Source: an uncultured Nitrospira sp. (GTDB taxonomy: Bacteria; Nitrospirota; Nitrospiria; Nitrospirales; Nitrospiraceae). From it: 64,000 nucleotides of DNA. Each line of letters begins with the position of its first letter. The stretch's first letter is position 1. A program made the position numbers and the translations under genes. The stretch lies in assembly GCA_902500715.1 (NCBI GenBank), contig CABVRO010000005.1:975-64974 (forward strand). The letters are read 5' to 3'. The notes beneath the pieces are model-generated. The model did not search any database. It saw nothing but the letters and a program-made list of their open reading frames with translations, and was not told the DNA's origin. This document shows, piece after piece, positions 1 through 20,657 of the stretch.

Positions 1-2951
1 ACGCCGAACGCTTCTTCCACCAGTCCACTCACGACATACGCACGGTTGGGCGCGAGGAGCTGATAGCAGCGTCGATAGACGTTCGGAAAGAGTGTGGCGT
101 CGTAGAGAGCCGTCGTGTCTTCGAGTGTGATGAATTCCATGGCCTGACCGCGTTTCGTCTCCACCGGCTTTTCCGTGACGAGCCATCCCACCATCGTGAT
201 TCGGCAGCCGATGTAGCGAGGCATATGCGATGCCGGAACCGGCTTGAGCCGCTCGATTCGATCGCGATAGAGGGTCAATGGGTGGCGGCTTGCGAGAAAG
301 CCGAGCGACTCGATCTCATGAGCCAGCTTGCAGGACTCCGCGTAGTCCTCCGGCACAGGAAGCGGACCGGCGCGGGCCTGCTCTTTCGCATACAACCGCC
401 AGAGCAGCGCAGGTCTCGTCAACTCGCCGGCGAGGGAATCGCAGCAGCCGGCGCGGATCAACGTCCTGGCTTGCGCAGGATCGGGATCGATGCGTGTCTG
501 AAAGTCTTGGAACGAGCGGTAAGGACCGGCTTGCGTCCGTTCCTTCACGATACGCTCGCCGAGGTCTTTCTGAAGCGTCTTCACCTGCATCAAGCCGATT
601 CGCACGCGATCCCCTTCGCCGCGATAGGCCCAATCGCTGGCGTTCACATCCGGCGGCAGGATCGCGAGTCCCATGCGGCGCGCTTCCGAGACATAGGCGA
701 AAGCGGAATAAAATCCGCCCTGATTGCTGATGACGGAGGCGATGAACTCCGCCGGATAATGGGCGCGCAGGTAGGCGGACTTGAAAGAGACCTGGGCATA
801 GCTGGCCGAATGGGGTTTGCAAAAACTGTAGCCGGCGAAGCTCATGATCATCGTCCAGATCTTGGCGATCGTCTCCGGCGCGGCGCCGTTCTTTGCGGCG
901 CCGCGGCAGAATTGGTGATGGTAGTCGCGCAGCTGACGCGCCTTGTGTTTCTTGCTGATGACTTTCCGAAGTTGATCGGCATCTTCCACGGAAAAATCGG
1001 CGAGAGCCATCGCCACCTTCGTCACATCTTCCTGATACACCATGATGCCATGGGTTTCTTCTAAGATAGGCCCCATCGATGGATGGAGGGGCTCATATGG
1101 CTGACCATGGGCCCGCTGTACAAAATCATGCATGCACGTAAGGGCCGCCGGCCGCACCAGCGAAGAGACAATCACGAGATATTCAAACACGTCGGCGACC
1201 GCACGACGACGGGGTGGCATGCGGAGCCAGAGTTTCCGGAGCAGCAGCCTGGTGGCGGGCGATTCGACGTAGAAGCAGCCGATCGTGTCGCCTCTGCGGA
1301 TCAGCTCCATAGTGGCCTCGTCTTGAAGCGGGTCCCAACCGGCATAATCGATCATACGTCCGGTATGGCGGGCGATGGCCTCGAGGGCATCGCGAATGAC
1401 CGCAAGCGAGCGGTTGCCCAAGAGGTCAATCTTGACTAGGCCCGCCTCTTCCGTTTGATCCTTTTCCCATTGGATGACCGGCAGTCCCTTGGCCGTGAAT
1501 TCGACCGGCGCATAGCGCCGGATTTCATCCGGCACGATCACGACGCCGCCGCAGTGTATGGAAAGATGTCGAAAATGGTTCTGCGCCCGTAGCGCCTGTC
1601 CGAGGATCTCAGGCCAAGGCGCTTTGAGCCGCAAGGTCTGTGTGAGCCGGATGAGCCATTGTTGTTCGGTCGGCGGAGAGGGAGCAGTCAGGATGGCCTG
1701 CTGGCGGCAGACCCGTGCGGACATTGCGCCGATTTCGTCTGCCGGCATACCGTAGACCTTTGCCGTTTCGCGTATGGCCGCGCGGAACCCCAAGCTGTTC
1801 TGATTCGCCACCATGGCCGCTTGATGCTCGCCGTATTTCTGGAACACCCAATCCAGGATGCCGTCACGTGTGTCCCAGGGAAAATCGATGTCGATATCGG
1901 GCGGATCTTTTCGCCCAGGATTCAGAAATCGCTCGAAGAACAAATGGTGCTTGAGCGGATCCACGTGCGTGATCTTGAGGCAATACGAGACGATCGAGGC
2001 AGCCACCGACCCCCGACCGCACGTTAATGTCTCCTGTTCGATGATTTCCCTTACGATCAGGAAATAATGCGCGAAGCGTTTCTCTCTGATGACGGCAAGT
2101 TCCTTCTCGATCCGCGCGCGCACGTCCGGTGAAATCGTCCCATATCGTTCCTGCGCGCCGTTATAGGTCTTCTCCTTGAGCGCCGCAAAGGCCTCGTCTT
2201 CGCTGAATCGGCGAAAGGCCGGGAAGATCGTGTCGCCGAACTGCCAGTCGCTGTGACAGCTTTGGGCGATGCGAACGCTGTTCTCCAGCGCCTCAGGAAC
2301 ATGCGGCAGCTCCGCCGCCATGCGGCCTGGCGAGATGAGCCATTGGCGAGGGCTGCAGCAGGCTTCCTCCGGCAGCCGCGAGAAGGTGGTATTGTGCGCA
2401 ATGGCGCGCAACAGGCGATGCGTCGGAAAGTCATCCGGTCGGACAAAATACACGCGGTTGGTGGCGACGGGCGGCAGACCCAGGCGGCGGCTGAGCTGCA
2501 GCGTCTGTTGCATGGCAGGTCCCGGCGTCAATTCGACGTAAAGTTGCTGTCGGTCCTCCGTGGCCCAGTTTGCCAGAGCAACGGCATCGTCGGTCGCGAC
2601 GATCAATCCGCTGCGATGGCGCGCCACGGCCTCGATGAACCTGAACGACGGATCGCAATGCCGCTCGGACAGCAGGCGGCACAGGTTGGCATAGCCGTCT
2701 GGAGTTTCGACCAACAGTAGGGCGCGGTGGTCGCCGGTCGTCAATTCGGCGCCGAGGATCGGACGGATGCCCTCCTGCTTCGCCTGTTCGAGGAATCTGA
2801 CGGCGCCGTAGAGCCCGTTCGTATCGGTCACGGCCATGGTTTGGAGTCCTTGCCGCCGGGTTGCCGCACACAGCTCTTCCAGTGACGACACGCCGCGCAT
2901 GGCCGAATAGTCCGAATGCACGTGCAGGTGCACGAAGGGCGTGGTGGTCAT
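1..2951 (-). CDS. dnaE2: Error-prone DNA polymerase III alpha subunit DnaE2 (runs off the left edge)
   Basis: Manual minus-strand translation gives a PHP N-terminus (MTTTPFVHLHVHSDYSAMRG) and Pol III alpha motifs RHLSIHCGGVVI and GLVKIDLLGNRSL. The ATG overlaps the imuB stop (ATGA). It is missing from the ORF track because no stop lies in the window. Confidence 0.93.
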   Translation of the reverse strand, partial: MTTTPFVHLHVHSDYSAMRGVSSLEELCAATRRQGLQTMAVTDTNGLYGAVRFLEQAKQEGIRPILGAELTTGDHRALLLVETPDGYANLCRLLSERHCDPSFRFIEAVARHRSGLIVATDDAVALANWATEDRQQLYVELTPGPAMQQTLQLSRRLGLPPVATNRVYFVRPDDFPTHRLLRAIAHNTTFSRLPEEACCSPRQWLISPGRMAAELPHVPEALENSVRIAQSCHSDWQFGDTIFPAFRRFSEDEAFAALKEKTYNGAQERYGTISPDVRARIEKELAVIREKRFAHYFLIVREIIEQETLTCGRGSVAASIVSYCLKITHVDPLKHHLFFERFLNPGRKDPPDIDIDFPWDTRDGILDWVFQKYGEHQAAMVANQNSLGFRAAIRETAKVYGMPADEIGAMSARVCRQQAILTAPSPPTEQQWLIRLTQTLRLKAPWPEILGQALRAQNHFRHLSIHCGGVVIVPDEIRRYAPVEFTAKGLPVIQWEKDQTEEAGLVKIDLLGNRSLAVIRDALEAIARHTGRMIDYAGWDPLQDEATMELIRRGDTIGCFYVESPATRLLLRKLWLRMPPRRRAVADVFEYLVIVSSLVRPAALTCMHDFVQRAHGQPYEPLHPSMGPILEETHGIMVYQEDVTKVAMALADFSVEDADQLRKVISKKHKARQLRDYHHQFCRGAAKNGAAPETIAKIWTMIMSFAGYSFCKPHSASYAQVSFKSAYLRAHYPAEFIASVISNQGGFYSAFAYVSEARRMGLAILPPDVNASDWAYRGEGDRVRIGLMQVKTLQKDLGERIVKERTQAGPYRSFQDFQTRIDPDPAQARTLIRAGCCDSLAGELTRPALLWRLYAKEQARAGPLPVPEDYAESCKLAHEIESLGFLASRHPLTLYRDRIERLKPVPASHMPRYIGCRITMVGWLVTEKPVETKRGQAMEFITLEDTTALYDATLFPNVYRRCYQLLAPNRAYVVSGLVEEAFG

Positions 2952-4129
2952 GGCAAGGTCTTTCCCCAAGCGATCGCCCGTTCGCCGAATTTTGCGCGAA
3001 TCGCATCAAGGACAAGAGAGAGTCGATGGGATGCCGGCTGGACCGTCATGGCCGGCTCGTCGAAAAGCCGCAGTTGCTCGGCAAGCGGTTCCAGGCAATC
3101 GGCCCGCATTACGATTCGCTGGACCCTGACTCGGCGTCGGAAACATCGGACAAAGAGCTGGACGAGCACGGGCTGGAGATCCGCCTCCCAATAGGTGCCG
3201 CGCGGCATGGTTTGCTGCGTCGCCTGCTCCGTCTGGTCGCTGTGGCGGAGCGCCAGCGACAGACGCCTGCAAACGCGCCGTTGTTGCCGGAGCATAGCGC
3301 AAATCCGTTCGAGCAGATGGGACAGCCGTCCCAGGATGAGTCGATCGTCGATGTCGTCCGGATTGAGGGTGAGAGATTGTTCGATCAGCGGCTGTTCGAT
3401 TGATGGGCGGACGGGCGAGTGGTCAATACCCATGGCCCAGTCATGCAGCACGACGGCAGCGGTCCCGAGCACCGCTTCCAGCTGGGCCAATGACACGTCG
3501 GCGATGGATCCCAAGGTTCTCAGATTCAGATCGTCCAACCGGCGGAGAATATGCGAGGCCTGCATCCGGTTGAGTCCCGGCAGCAGTGTGGCAGGCAAGG
3601 GAGCGAGAAAGGCTCGCTCGGAGCCGGAATAGATCGAACGCATCTGCGGTGGCTTCTCCAGCGTCGTCGCCGCCAGGTGCGACACGAGTTTGTTCATGGC
3701 CATCCCTATTTGACTGGGCCATCCCCATTTGACCGTCAGTTCTCGTTCCAGGCGGGCGGCCGTATCGATGGGGCGTCCGAAGAGTCGTTGTGTGCCGGTG
3801 AGGTCCAGAAATAGCGAACCGGGTTGGATTGATTCCCACACAGGTGCAAAGGGTAGGATCGCCTGTTGCAATTCGCAATGCGCCGACCGCACCAGCGCCG
3901 GGTCCGGCGGTACCACGCGGATGCCCGAGCATAATCGGCGCGCCAGTTCCACGGTCATGCCGGAATGGATGCCTTCCTGCGCGGCTTCCCACGATACTTC
4001 CTGCACCAGTGCGCGACGCGTATGGACCGGTGCCAGGACGATCGGTCTTTTGCGCAACGAAGCCTCGCGGGTCTGCGCGAGCGCGATTCCGAAGGATGGA
4101 ATCTGGAGACAGAGGATATGGCGTTCCAT
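2948..4129 (-). CDS. imuB: ImuB-type (catalytically degenerate) Y-family polymerase accessory protein
   Basis: Y-family-like layout (GWPSQIGMAMNKLVSHLA, LPGL, C-terminal QLRLF clamp-binding-like motif). The catalytic DxD and SxDE motifs are replaced (CLQIPSF, SIQPGS). Translationally coupled to dnaE2. Start placed at ATG 4129; ATG 4138 is the alternative. Confidence 0.85.
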   Translation of the reverse strand: MERHILCLQIPSFGIALAQTREASLRKRPIVLAPVHTRRALVQEVSWEAAQEGIHSGMTVELARRLCSGIRVVPPDPALVRSAHCELQQAILPFAPVWESIQPGSLFLDLTGTQRLFGRPIDTAARLERELTVKWGWPSQIGMAMNKLVSHLAATTLEKPPQMRSIYSGSERAFLAPLPATLLPGLNRMQASHILRRLDDLNLRTLGSIADVSLAQLEAVLGTAAVVLHDWAMGIDHSPVRPSIEQPLIEQSLTLNPDDIDDRLILGRLSHLLERICAMLRQQRRVCRRLSLALRHSDQTEQATQQTMPRGTYWEADLQPVLVQLFVRCFRRRVRVQRIVMRADCLEPLAEQLRLFDEPAMTVQPASHRLSLVLDAIRAKFGERAIAWGKTLP

Positions 4130-4136
4130 GGGAGCC

Positions 4137-4166
4137 ATTGTAAATGTAACCGATGGTTACATTCAA
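4137..4166 (-). promoter_or_regulatory. Sigma70-like promoter (TTGAAT-N18-TACAAT) containing a perfect palindrome AATGTAACC-N3-GGTTACATT (4143-4163); candidate repressor operator
   Basis: Read directly from the sequence. The palindrome fills the -35/-10 spacer directly upstream of imuB-dnaE2. Confidence 0.7.
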
Positions 4167-4212
4167 AGGGTGAGGATTGTTCGGCGGCATGGCCTAGAAG
4201 CTCATGAAATGT

Positions 4213-4659
4213 TTACGGTTTCCTGCTCTCTCCCGAGGGGTCGCCGGATGCCGGTGAGCAATTCATTCCGGCGAAGGGATTCAGCGGGTTGACGCGCGGT
4301 GAGCAACGTTGCGATTCGGAGGCGGCCTTCTCGGGGGCGTCCTTCAAACCGGACGGCGATAACGCGGGATCGCCGGGACCGGGTTGGCGGGGAACCATCG
4401 GTGCGGTCGAGATGGACGGCGGAGTTGCATTCGACGGCAGCTCCATCTGTGGCGGTGCGGTCGGCTCGACCGGAGGGGTGAATCCTCCTGGGAGCGGGGG
4501 CGTGGCGGTGTCGATGGCGACGCAGCCCGGCTTGCCCTTCGGCTGGTCCGTCAGGACCGTGCTGCCATTGGCGCCTTGGCAACGATAGACCTTCGCGATT
4601 GCCTTGCTCGGCAGGAGTAGTGCGAGCAGGGTGAGAAGGAGGACATGAACCCAGCGCAT
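4213..4659 (-). CDS. DUF4124-like exported protein with Pro-rich linker
   Basis: Signal peptide, then KVYRCQGANGSTVLTDQP, typical of DUF4124. GGAG RBS before ATG 4659. Confidence 0.75.
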   Translation of the reverse strand: MRWVHVLLLTLLALLLPSKAIAKVYRCQGANGSTVLTDQPKGKPGCVAIDTATPPLPGGFTPPVEPTAPPQMELPSNATPPSISTAPMVPRQPGPGDPALSPSGLKDAPEKAASESQRCSPRVNPLNPFAGMNCSPASGDPSGESRKP

Positions 4660-4686
4660 CGTCAATTCTCCGATGCCAGATCCTGT

Positions 4687-4867
4687 CTAGCCCGGACTAT
4701 TCATAAATACCTGCTCCGGCGTCCGATCCTCTCGCCCGGCGAGGCTGTTCTCGTTCGGCCTCCTCGACGGACTGCGAGTACGCCTGCGTCGGCCTCACAT
4801 GCGAGCAGCCTCGCCGGGCTTCCGCCTCGAACGCCTCGCGACGGTATTTACGAATAATCCTGGCTAG
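4687..4867. mobile_element. MITE-like element, family A
   Basis: 25-bp terminal inverted repeats with 3 mismatches (CTAGCCCGGACTATTCATAAATACC vs GGTATTTACGAATAATCCTGGCTAG), CTAG at both ends, non-coding interior. Confidence 0.7.
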
Positions 4868-4975
4868 TGAAGGCTCAGATTCGAACGATCAGGTTGTGGA
4901 CCTGGAATGGACTATAGGCGCGAGGTCGAGGAGAGTCAATCTCGCCGAGGGGTGGCGGTGGGCTTGTGGCGTCCC

Positions 4976-19397: not shown

Positions 19398-20657
19398 CTA
19401 CTCCTTGCGATGTGTCCCGGTTTGCACCGCCGGCTTTGTTGACCTACGGCCGGTCGGTAAGGTCAGGACCCGGTCCAAAATGCGGTGCGCGACGTCCCGC
19501 TTGGGTAACTGGGGGAGTTCCTCTACGCTGCCGTCGCGATCCAGGATGAACACGCGATTCGTGTCCGACCCGAAGCCCGCTCCTGCTGCTGTCACGTCAT
19601 TGGCGACCAGCAGATCGATGTCCTTAGCTTGCAGCTTTTCCCGCGCATGGGCAAGCAGATCCTCAGTTTCCGCGGCAAACCCCACCAGCACCTGTGTCGT
19701 CCGCCGTTCGCCCAATTCCTTCAGAATATCCTCGGTCGGTGACAACTCCAGGCTGGTGACGAGACCCCGGCGCTTTTTGAGCTTCTGCGCAACAGGTTGT
19801 GCGGGGCGAAAGTCCGCCACGGCGGCCGCCATGATGACGGTATCGCTCCAGGAAAACCGGCTGATGACAGCCTTGCGCATCTCCTCAGCCGTTGTCACCG
19901 AACACAACTCCACGTCGGCCGGCGGGGGCAGGGCCGTGGGGCCTGAGACCAGCAGGACCTCTGCGCCGCGTGCCCGCGCGGCTTCGGCAAGCGCATATCC
20001 CATCTTTCCGGAGGACCGGTTGGAAATGAACCGCACGGGATCGATGGGTTCCTGCGTAGGCCCGGCGGAAACGAGCAGACGGCGACCGGACCAATCCCGA
20101 CGCGGGTGGAGCGCGGCCTGAAGTGCCGAAAGGATTCGTGCTTCGTCCGCCAGCCGTCCCTGCCCGGAACGGCCAGAGGCCAGCGGGCCCTCTTCCGGTT
20201 CGACGATGACTGCCCCGCGTTGCCGCAGCGTGGCCACGTGCTCGACGACGGTCGGGTGTTGCCACATGTCCCCGTCCATGGCCGGCGCGAAAATCACGGG
20301 ACATTGTGTAGTGAGGAGCATAGTCGAGAGCAGATCGTCGGCCAGGCCAAGCACGGCTTTCGCCAGGCAATTGGCTGTGGCCGGGGCGATCAGGATAGCC
20401 TGCGCCTGCTCCGGCAAGGAGAGGTGCAGCATTTCCTGGTGGGCTTCGAAGAGGTCGGATGCCACGTGAGAACCGGACAACACCTCGAAGGTCAGCGGAG
20501 TCACGAAGCGGCAGGCTCCTGCCGTCATGACGACGTTCACCGTTGCGCCTTCGCGACGGAGTATGCGCAAGAGCCCCACGGCCTTATAAGCGGCAATACT
20601 CCCCGTGACGGCGAGTACAAGACGGACACCGGTGAGTGAGGGGCCGGTGGTCTGCAC
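19398..20657 (-). CDS. coaBC: Bifunctional phosphopantothenoylcysteine decarboxylase/ligase
   Basis: TGSIAAYK, APATAN, PAMD, GPTQEPIDPVRFISNRSSGKMG, AAVADF and GFAAET motifs. Confidence 0.96.
   Translation of the reverse strand: MQTTGPSLTGVRLVLAVTGSIAAYKAVGLLRILRREGATVNVVMTAGACRFVTPLTFEVLSGSHVASDLFEAHQEMLHLSLPEQAQAILIAPATANCLAKAVLGLADDLLSTMLLTTQCPVIFAPAMDGDMWQHPTVVEHVATLRQRGAVIVEPEEGPLASGRSGQGRLADEARILSALQAALHPRRDWSGRRLLVSAGPTQEPIDPVRFISNRSSGKMGYALAEAARARGAEVLLVSGPTALPPPADVELCSVTTAEEMRKAVISRFSWSDTVIMAAAVADFRPAQPVAQKLKKRRGLVTSLELSPTEDILKELGERRTTQVLVGFAAETEDLLAHAREKLQAKDIDLLVANDVTAAGAGFGSDTNRVFILDRDGSVEELPQLPKRDVAHRILDRVLTLPTGRRSTKPAVQTGTHRKE

Follow-up and report, generated by a model that had tools for sequence, protein, structure and literature searches.

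In Bacteroidetes, LexA is replaced by non-canonical LexA-like regulators of the SOS response, which combine a helix-turn-helix (HTH) domain of family PF01381 with an S24 domain (Sanchez-Osuna et al. 2021, PMC8565304). In Francisella, the S24 repressor FddR takes the place of LexA (Perez-Varela et al. 2026, PMC13148647), and in Pseudomonas putida a dedicated repressor controls the cassette lexA2-imuA-imuB-dnaE2, one of several self-regulated mutagenesis cassettes known in Proteobacteria (Abella 2004; Erill 2006, cited in PMC3919608). For Nitrospira, a full-text literature search returned no description of a LexA-binding motif or of DNA-damage regulation. Here, a stretch of 64,000 nucleotides from an uncultured Nitrospira sp. 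(assembly GCA_902500715.1, contig CABVRO010000005.1, positions 975 to 64,974 of the forward strand; hereafter the window) was analyzed for a perfect palindrome in the promoter of an imuB-dnaE2-like cassette. With a probability of roughly 80%, this palindrome is the operator of a Nitrospiraceae LexA-like repressor that controls its own gene and imuB-dnaE2. Like the Bacteroidetes regulators, the candidate repressor carries its S24 self-cleaving domain on an all-helical HTH instead of a winged helix, and canonical lexA is lacking (PMC8565304). As with FddR, an S24 repressor appears to replace LexA with a tiny, self-contained regulon that leaves recA unregulated (PMC13148647), and, as in P. putida, a dedicated repressor is predicted to control the cassette.

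Results

The Palindrome in the imuB Promoter and Its Second Genomic Copy

The window belongs to a Nitrospira lineage I metagenome-assembled genome (MAG) of 3.66 Mb with 59% GC and 93.5% completeness (designated G000). An earlier note on this DNA had described a perfect palindrome between the hexamers TTGAAT and TACAAT, an ATG at 4129 located 7 nt after the -10 hexamer without a ribosome-binding site, and an ATG at 4138 overlapping the -10 hexamer. All coordinates, the spacer and the arms held, as did the description of both ATG codons (Table 1). On the minus strand, where the imuB promoter region reads ...CCCTTTGAATGTAACCATCGGTTACATTTACAATGGCTCCCATGGAACGC..., the palindrome occupies the 18-nt spacer between the two hexamers. 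A consensus scan of positions 3900-4900 called TTGAAT-18-TACAAT as the sole sigma-70-like promoter and found no terminator-like site in this region.

Perfect palindromes with 9-bp arms and a 3-bp spacer are not rare as such, since 36 were counted in the 3.66-Mb genome, 1 of them in the window. The 17-bp core TGTAACC-N3-GGTTACA occurs in exactly two genomic copies, for a chance expectation of about 0.01 as calculated from the GC content of 59%. Both copies are located in core promoters, and both have ATC as the spacer. The second copy (G000:C11:20871-20887) adjoins the start codon of an open reading frame (ORF) of 183 amino acids.

The Candidate Repressor

This ORF encodes a LexA-like protein with an HTH_3 domain (PF01381; residues 8-45) followed by a Peptidase_S24 domain (residues 61-174), and it is the sole S24 protein of G000. 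Scored against the NCBIfam lexA equivalog model TIGR00498, the protein reached 122.5 bits and passed the cut-off of 110.95, with the match running from model position 29 onward. The domain LexA_DNA_bind (PF01726) was not detected in G000 at 93.5% completeness, and it was likewise missing from 35 of the 36 Nitrospira genomes searched. Among solved structures, LexA gave the best sequence matches, and residues A67-G68, S101 and K138 of the repressor align with A84-G85, S119 and K156 of Escherichia coli LexA. These residues were invariant in sets of 41 and 13 homologues. In the AlphaFold model of the repressor, four helices at the N-terminus precede a C-terminal domain rich in beta structure. For the latter domain, Foldseek ranked LexA first (39-42% identity), with UmuD and lambda CI (16-20%) placed behind. 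The N-terminal domain, an all-helical XRE-like HTH, retrieved small XRE proteins, C.BclI and Aca2 among them.

The motif looks foreign because the repressor bears an XRE-type HTH where LexA has its winged helix. In the earlier proposal, the palindrome was a DNA-damage operator specific to the lineage and different from the LexA boxes known so far; the copy at the sole S24 gene, together with the conservation of the site, supports this proposal. Public annotation pipelines name the protein 'repressor LexA [Nitrospira sp.]'. Its close relatives are Nitrospira proteins, among them the orthologue in Ca. N. defluvii (FP929003.1) with 96% identity, and the window is assigned to lineage I on this basis.

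The repressor gene is directly followed by two small ORFs (C11, about 20040-20300, minus strand; also L065:2037-2481 and L100:2126-2648), which are candidates for what the repressor may control, besides itself, in species without a type A cassette (described below). The first, preceded by AAGGAGG, encodes a coiled-coil protein of about 82 amino acids whose match between lineages I and II is weak (E 0.006). The second encodes a Cys-rich protein of about 60 amino acids (C-x-DCG ... C-x-RC ... GCC) with 34% identity between lineages I and II (E 2e-10). A search for Pfam families in both gave nothing significant. That they are co-transcribed effectors of the circuit, e.g., a division inhibitor, is speculation.

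Conservation of the Site at Repressor and imuB Promoters

In 30 lineage I species, the repressor promoter reads TTGACA-N~17-(R)TGTAACCATYGGTTACA-N1-2-ATGAC. The -35 hexamer and the palindrome were invariant in these 30 promoters, with the sequence between and around them varying freely. The same pattern was present at 45 further Nitrospiraceae loci, some of them from lineage II and from MAGs that bear the label N. lenta; a minority of the 45 carried TGTTACC-AAT-GGATACA instead. It extended to G053 and G058, which represent two genera from other families of the Nitrospirales and in which the repressor gene directly precedes imuB. Of 172 Nitrospirota genomes sampled outside Nitrospiraceae, none had the exact 17-mer. 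In the promoter of the repressor gene, the site overlaps the -10/+1 region and probably doubles as the -10 element. Judged by sequence position only, the repressor would thus be autoregulated, as the operator lies in the promoter of its own gene.

Two types of imuB cassette, A and B, occur in the genus. Type A is the stand-alone imuB-dnaE2 arrangement seen in the window, and it is present in G000, G002, G005, G016, G018, G029, G032 and G036, with 72-84% identity to the imuB-like protein of the window. The type A promoter of G032 could not be read because the contig ends inside the gene. A genuine operator had been expected to recur in orthologous promoters, and ATGTAACCATYGGTTAC was indeed found in 7/7 readable type A imuB promoters. 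Across the genus, each genome has a single exact GTAACC-N3-GGTTAC site, that of the repressor gene, and genomes with the type A cassette have one more.

Two layouts were distinguished among these seven promoters. In G000, G016 and G036, the order is TTGAAT-[operator]-TACAAT-N6-8-ATG, the gap between the -10 hexamer and the ATG being 7, 6 and 8 nt, respectively, not conserved and without a Shine-Dalgarno (SD) sequence. In G002, G005, G018 and G029, the order is TTGACA-N17-TAACCA, as at the repressor promoter, and the leader, roughly 17-19 nt long, likewise has no SD sequence. Since the hexamers differ between orthologues while the putative operator stays fixed, the promoter has evidently turned over around it.

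The N-terminus encoded from the ATG at 4129, MERHILC, aligns with MHRDIVC and MDRHI(L/V)C of the orthologues. The second ATG (4138-4136) overlaps the -10 hexamer and is not conserved in them. Because of the conserved N-terminus, the comparison points to ATG 4129, not ATG 4138, as the true imuB start. The leaderless mRNA that had been postulated for imuB finds support in this comparison of orthologues. In G000, G016 and G036, TACAAT precedes the conserved ATG by 6-8 nt and the imuB mRNA is probably leaderless, but the proposal does not extend to the four orthologues with the other layout.

Paralogous Cassettes and Co-Variation of Helix and Half-Site

The type B cassette (42-47% identity) is an operon in which a paralogous XRE-S24 repressor (about 59% identity) is joined to imuB and dnaE2. 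Type B modules were observed at loci L042-L062 (e.g., L052:3240-3380, minus strand), and they stand beside the main repressor in most genomes of the genus. Their promoters have the same architecture, with half-sites TGTATCC, TGTAACG or TGTGACC, i.e., with one base changed per half-site.

The recognition helix was predicted to span repressor residues 27-38, of which 29-36 are helical in the model. The helix TTRVSVARYESG pairs with the half-site TGTAACC, RKRLAIARYEGG with TGTATCC, TTRQTIARYELG with TGTAACG and TTRRSIIRYEDG with TGTGACC. Across the paralogues, the residues of cleavage and catalysis do not vary. The co-variation of helix and half-site is the strongest indirect evidence that the XRE-S24 proteins read these sites.

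Alternative Readings of the Palindrome

The palindrome could be mainly a promoter element, an extended -10 of the form TGTAACCAT, that is conserved through recognition by RNA polymerase and its sigma factor. Both the repressor promoters and those of four imuB orthologues have an invariant TTGACA at 17-18 nt upstream of TAACCA/AACCAT with no other -10 visible, and the conserved 'AT' of the palindrome spacer would fall in such a -10. However, the right arm is equally invariant and dyad-symmetric, and G000, G016 and G036 have a separate TACAAT with the palindrome wholly in the spacer. Moreover, the motif is absent from recA and further promoters in the genus, where TATAAT serves as the -10, and the half-site variants track the recognition helix of the repressor. 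This explanation is considered improbable, although the roles of promoter element and operator are compatible and do not exclude each other.

Even less probable is that a different transcription factor binds the site and regulates both loci. Such a factor is conceivable because the link between the XRE-S24 protein and the site is drawn from sequence. However, autoregulation through a dyad at the start of the own gene is the rule for S24 repressors (PMC8565304, PMC13148647), every type B operon, like G053 and G058, keeps the putative operator and the repressor together as one unit, and changes in the recognition helix go with changes in the operator.

That the palindrome is an RNA hairpin (a terminator or stabiliser of the DUF4124 gene) or arose by chance is hardly credible: it is located 50 nt past the DUF4124 stop codon, could form an 11-bp stem as RNA and is one of the 36 perfect palindromes of its kind, but a U-tract is missing and the consensus scan called no terminator-like site, for which reasons the terminator reading was rejected. 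Moreover, the same sequence also occurs in places without a preceding gene, about 80 promoters in varied contexts conserve it at the DNA level, and an identical 17-mer is found at the sole S24 gene against an expectation of about 0.01.

Extent of the Predicted Regulon

If the palindrome is the operator of the LexA-like repressor, the promoters of repair genes bear on how far its control extends. The earlier note had proposed to look for the motif upstream of lexA, recA and uvrA. It was recovered at the lexA-like gene, the only other genomic copy, but neither at the recA promoters of 30 congeners nor at uvrA of G000. Upstream of uvrA, uvrB, ruvB, uvrD and recN in G000, the best matches had 4-7 mismatches in 14 positions, which equals the background of random 500-bp windows.

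The Nitrospira recA promoter is itself conserved, GGGCTAGGTTTCTC...TCCGGTATAAT, and of the TATAAT type (loci L172-L201, e.g., L175:1300-1500). A conserved recA 5' leader of about 150 nt, GGTCAACTCA...GGCTGGTGCGTTGTCTCC, gave no match in Rfam; it may be a structured leader or the site of another regulator. Since the motif is absent from recA and excision-repair promoters, the predicted regulon is minimal, comprising the repressor operon and imuB-dnaE2, and the site is centred on the cassette rather than being a broad SOS box.

A second tier of weaker sites in G000 was considered and rejected, as the 36 further matches with up to 3 mismatches are nearly all located inside long ORFs and none is found at known repair genes. 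In G029, a third exact copy (L164:1501-1515; G029:C10:182128) was observed in AT-rich intergenic DNA, some 60 nt ahead of an ORF resembling N6-adenine DNA methyltransferases (NPPY motif). This site may have been recruited as a target, or it may be a relic. A further exact site was found in G014 (contig C27). An extra exact site in G015 was rejected as a target, since it is intragenic and hence attributed to chance.

The Cassette and Its Neighbours

The imuB-like ORF, which runs from 4138 or 4129 to 2948, scored far under the cut-offs of all NCBIfam DinB models. Its N-terminus reads LQIPSF at the position of the Asp motif, where active DinB proteins carry the catalytic VDMDAF. The catalytic Asp motif therefore seems to be replaced, as expected of ImuB, and the site is probably inactive. 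The dnaE2-like protein, which is truncated by the window end, reached 598 bits against the error-prone polymerase model NF004225 (cut-off 939). A separate dnaE1-like gene is present on contig C26 with 29% identity to the PolIII-alpha protein of the window; therefore, the latter is regarded as the second, DnaE2-type copy. The imuB stop codon and the dnaE2 start codon overlap as ATGA (2948-2951), which suggests that the two genes may be translationally coupled. Neither imuA nor imuA' is present in the cassette, and the promoter is followed by imuB without an intervening gene.

The DUF4124 gene upstream, the product of which is a secreted protein, is outside the regulon. The intergenic region of DUF4124 and imuB is about 100 bp shorter than that of G002 (4167-4212 compared with L034:2680-2862).

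Table 1. Coordinates of the features described for the window and for contig C11 of the same genome.
Feature	Position	Strand	Description
Operator (putative)	4143..4163		perfect 21-bp palindrome (9-3-9); minus strand AATGTAACC-ATC-GGTTACATT at 4163-4143
17-bp operator core	4145-4161		TGTAACC-N3-GGTTACA; conserved part of the palindrome
-35 hexamer	4161..4166	minus	TTGAAT; overlaps the left end of the palindrome; identical in G016 and G036
-10 hexamer	4137..4142	minus	TACAAT; directly after the palindrome; kept in G016 and G036
imuB start codon	4127..4129	minus	ATG; 7 nt past the -10 hexamer (GGCTCCC between) without SD sequence; candidate leaderless start
imuB-like gene	2948..4129	minus	Y-family polymerase homologue; IMS and IMS_C domains
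dnaE2-like gene	3..2951	minus	second PolIII-alpha copy; extends beyond the left end of the window
DUF4124 gene	4213..4665	minus	secreted protein; upstream neighbour and 5' limit of the 83-bp promoter region; syntenic in G002
LexA-like repressor gene	contig C11:20320-20871		183 amino acids; HTH_XRE and LexA-type S24 C-terminal domain

Discussion

The following sequence of events would account for these observations. A repressor dimer would bind both TGTAACC half-sites and, when bound, exclude RNA polymerase at both promoters, since the site fills the spacer between the -35 and -10 hexamers at imuB and overlaps the -10/+1 region at the repressor gene. Upon DNA damage, RecA filaments would stimulate self-cleavage of the repressor at Ala67-Gly68. 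Its release would then allow transcription of the operon for the mutagenic translesion polymerase, imuB-dnaE2, and of the repressor gene, and the imuB mRNA, probably starting at or beside the ATG at 4129, would be leaderless. Physical binding, RecA-dependent cleavage, induction by damage and the transcription start are steps that we infer.

Several points weigh against control of the cassette by this repressor as outlined. First, the AlphaFold model of the repressor is of moderate quality only, with a mean pLDDT of 66.8. Second, recA is missing from the G000 assembly (93.5% complete), in which only a weak RadA/KaiC-like match was obtained, and the co-protease was thus seen in relatives only. 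It was found in 36 of 38 other genomes of the genus, and its absence from G000 is probably an assembly gap. Third, in Nitrospira without a type A cassette, the repressor's own promoter is its sole exact target. Fourth, the imuB promoter layouts differ (three versus four species), and the leaderless reading is accordingly not universal.

A wider proposal is that the only LexA-type circuit of Nitrospiraceae uses a LexA with an XRE-type HTH, the regulon of which has shrunk to a portable module of repressor and mutasome. Duplicated modules would then act as orthogonal pairs in one cell, insulated by one base per half-site that is matched by 2-4 substitutions in the recognition helix, and recA and excision repair would be outside LexA-type control. 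We consider the chances for and against this proposal to be evenly balanced.

Nitrospira are the main nitrite oxidisers of soils, waters and wastewater plants, and a precise putative operator, TGTAACC-AWT-GGTTACA, and a candidate regulator can now be named for them. LexA-type control is apparently confined to the repressor gene and the error-prone polymerase module, which bears on the mutation of slow growers under UV, chloramine and oxidative stress. If this is true, recA and excision repair lie outside LexA-type control in globally important nitrite oxidisers. The paralogous repressor/operator variants present a clean natural case of specificity divergence and could supply orthogonal repressor parts.

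Compared with the Bacteroidetes regulators, the Nitrospira system shares a fixed-spacer dyad that recurs at the gene of the regulator itself, and imuB-dnaE2 is among the error-prone polymerase operons controlled there (PMC8565304). However, the Bacteroidetes regulons are large and canonical (recA, uvrC, uvrD, ssb and more) and use other motifs (PMC8565304), whereas the recA and excision-repair promoters of Nitrospira are without the site. In addition, the Bacteroidetes proteins were argued to be phage-derived (PMC8565304), whereas the C-terminal domain of the Nitrospira repressor is closest to genuine LexA and the protein passes TIGR00498. Francisella FddR also has paralogous copies associated with an error-prone polymerase gene (PMC13148647). 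Unlike the Nitrospira repressor, FddR recognises GTG-N11-CAC and acts on genes that are divergently transcribed, and its paralogues keep one motif (PMC13148647), whereas those of Nitrospira have diverged operators matched by helix changes.

A repressor gene with its own operator that heads imuB-dnaE2 is found in P. putida-type cassettes (cited in PMC3919608) and in the type B cassettes, G053 and G058. The P. putida-type cassettes have a canonical winged-helix LexA and imuA; in G000, by contrast, the repressor is of the XRE type, imuA is lacking, and the repressor gene is unlinked and would act in trans. UmuDAb of Acinetobacter (PMC7273328) and HdiR of Lactococcus (in PMC8565304) are self-cleaving regulators of the LexA superfamily that control error-prone polymerase or damage-response genes in a LexA-less or LexA-independent setting, as proposed here. 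Both differ in domain make-up and operators, UmuDAb requires the corepressor DdrR (PMC7273328), and nothing was found that relates either of them to the Nitrospira operator. The Myxococcus protein DdiA, which regulates dnaE2 and is likewise of the XRE type, was considered as a system of the same kind and rejected, as it has no S24 domain. Given the precedents in Bacteroidetes and Francisella, the Nitrospira system extends a known theme. Its distinctive features are the C-terminal domain nearest to genuine LexA, the minimal predicted regulon and the diverged pairs of operator and recognition helix among its paralogues.

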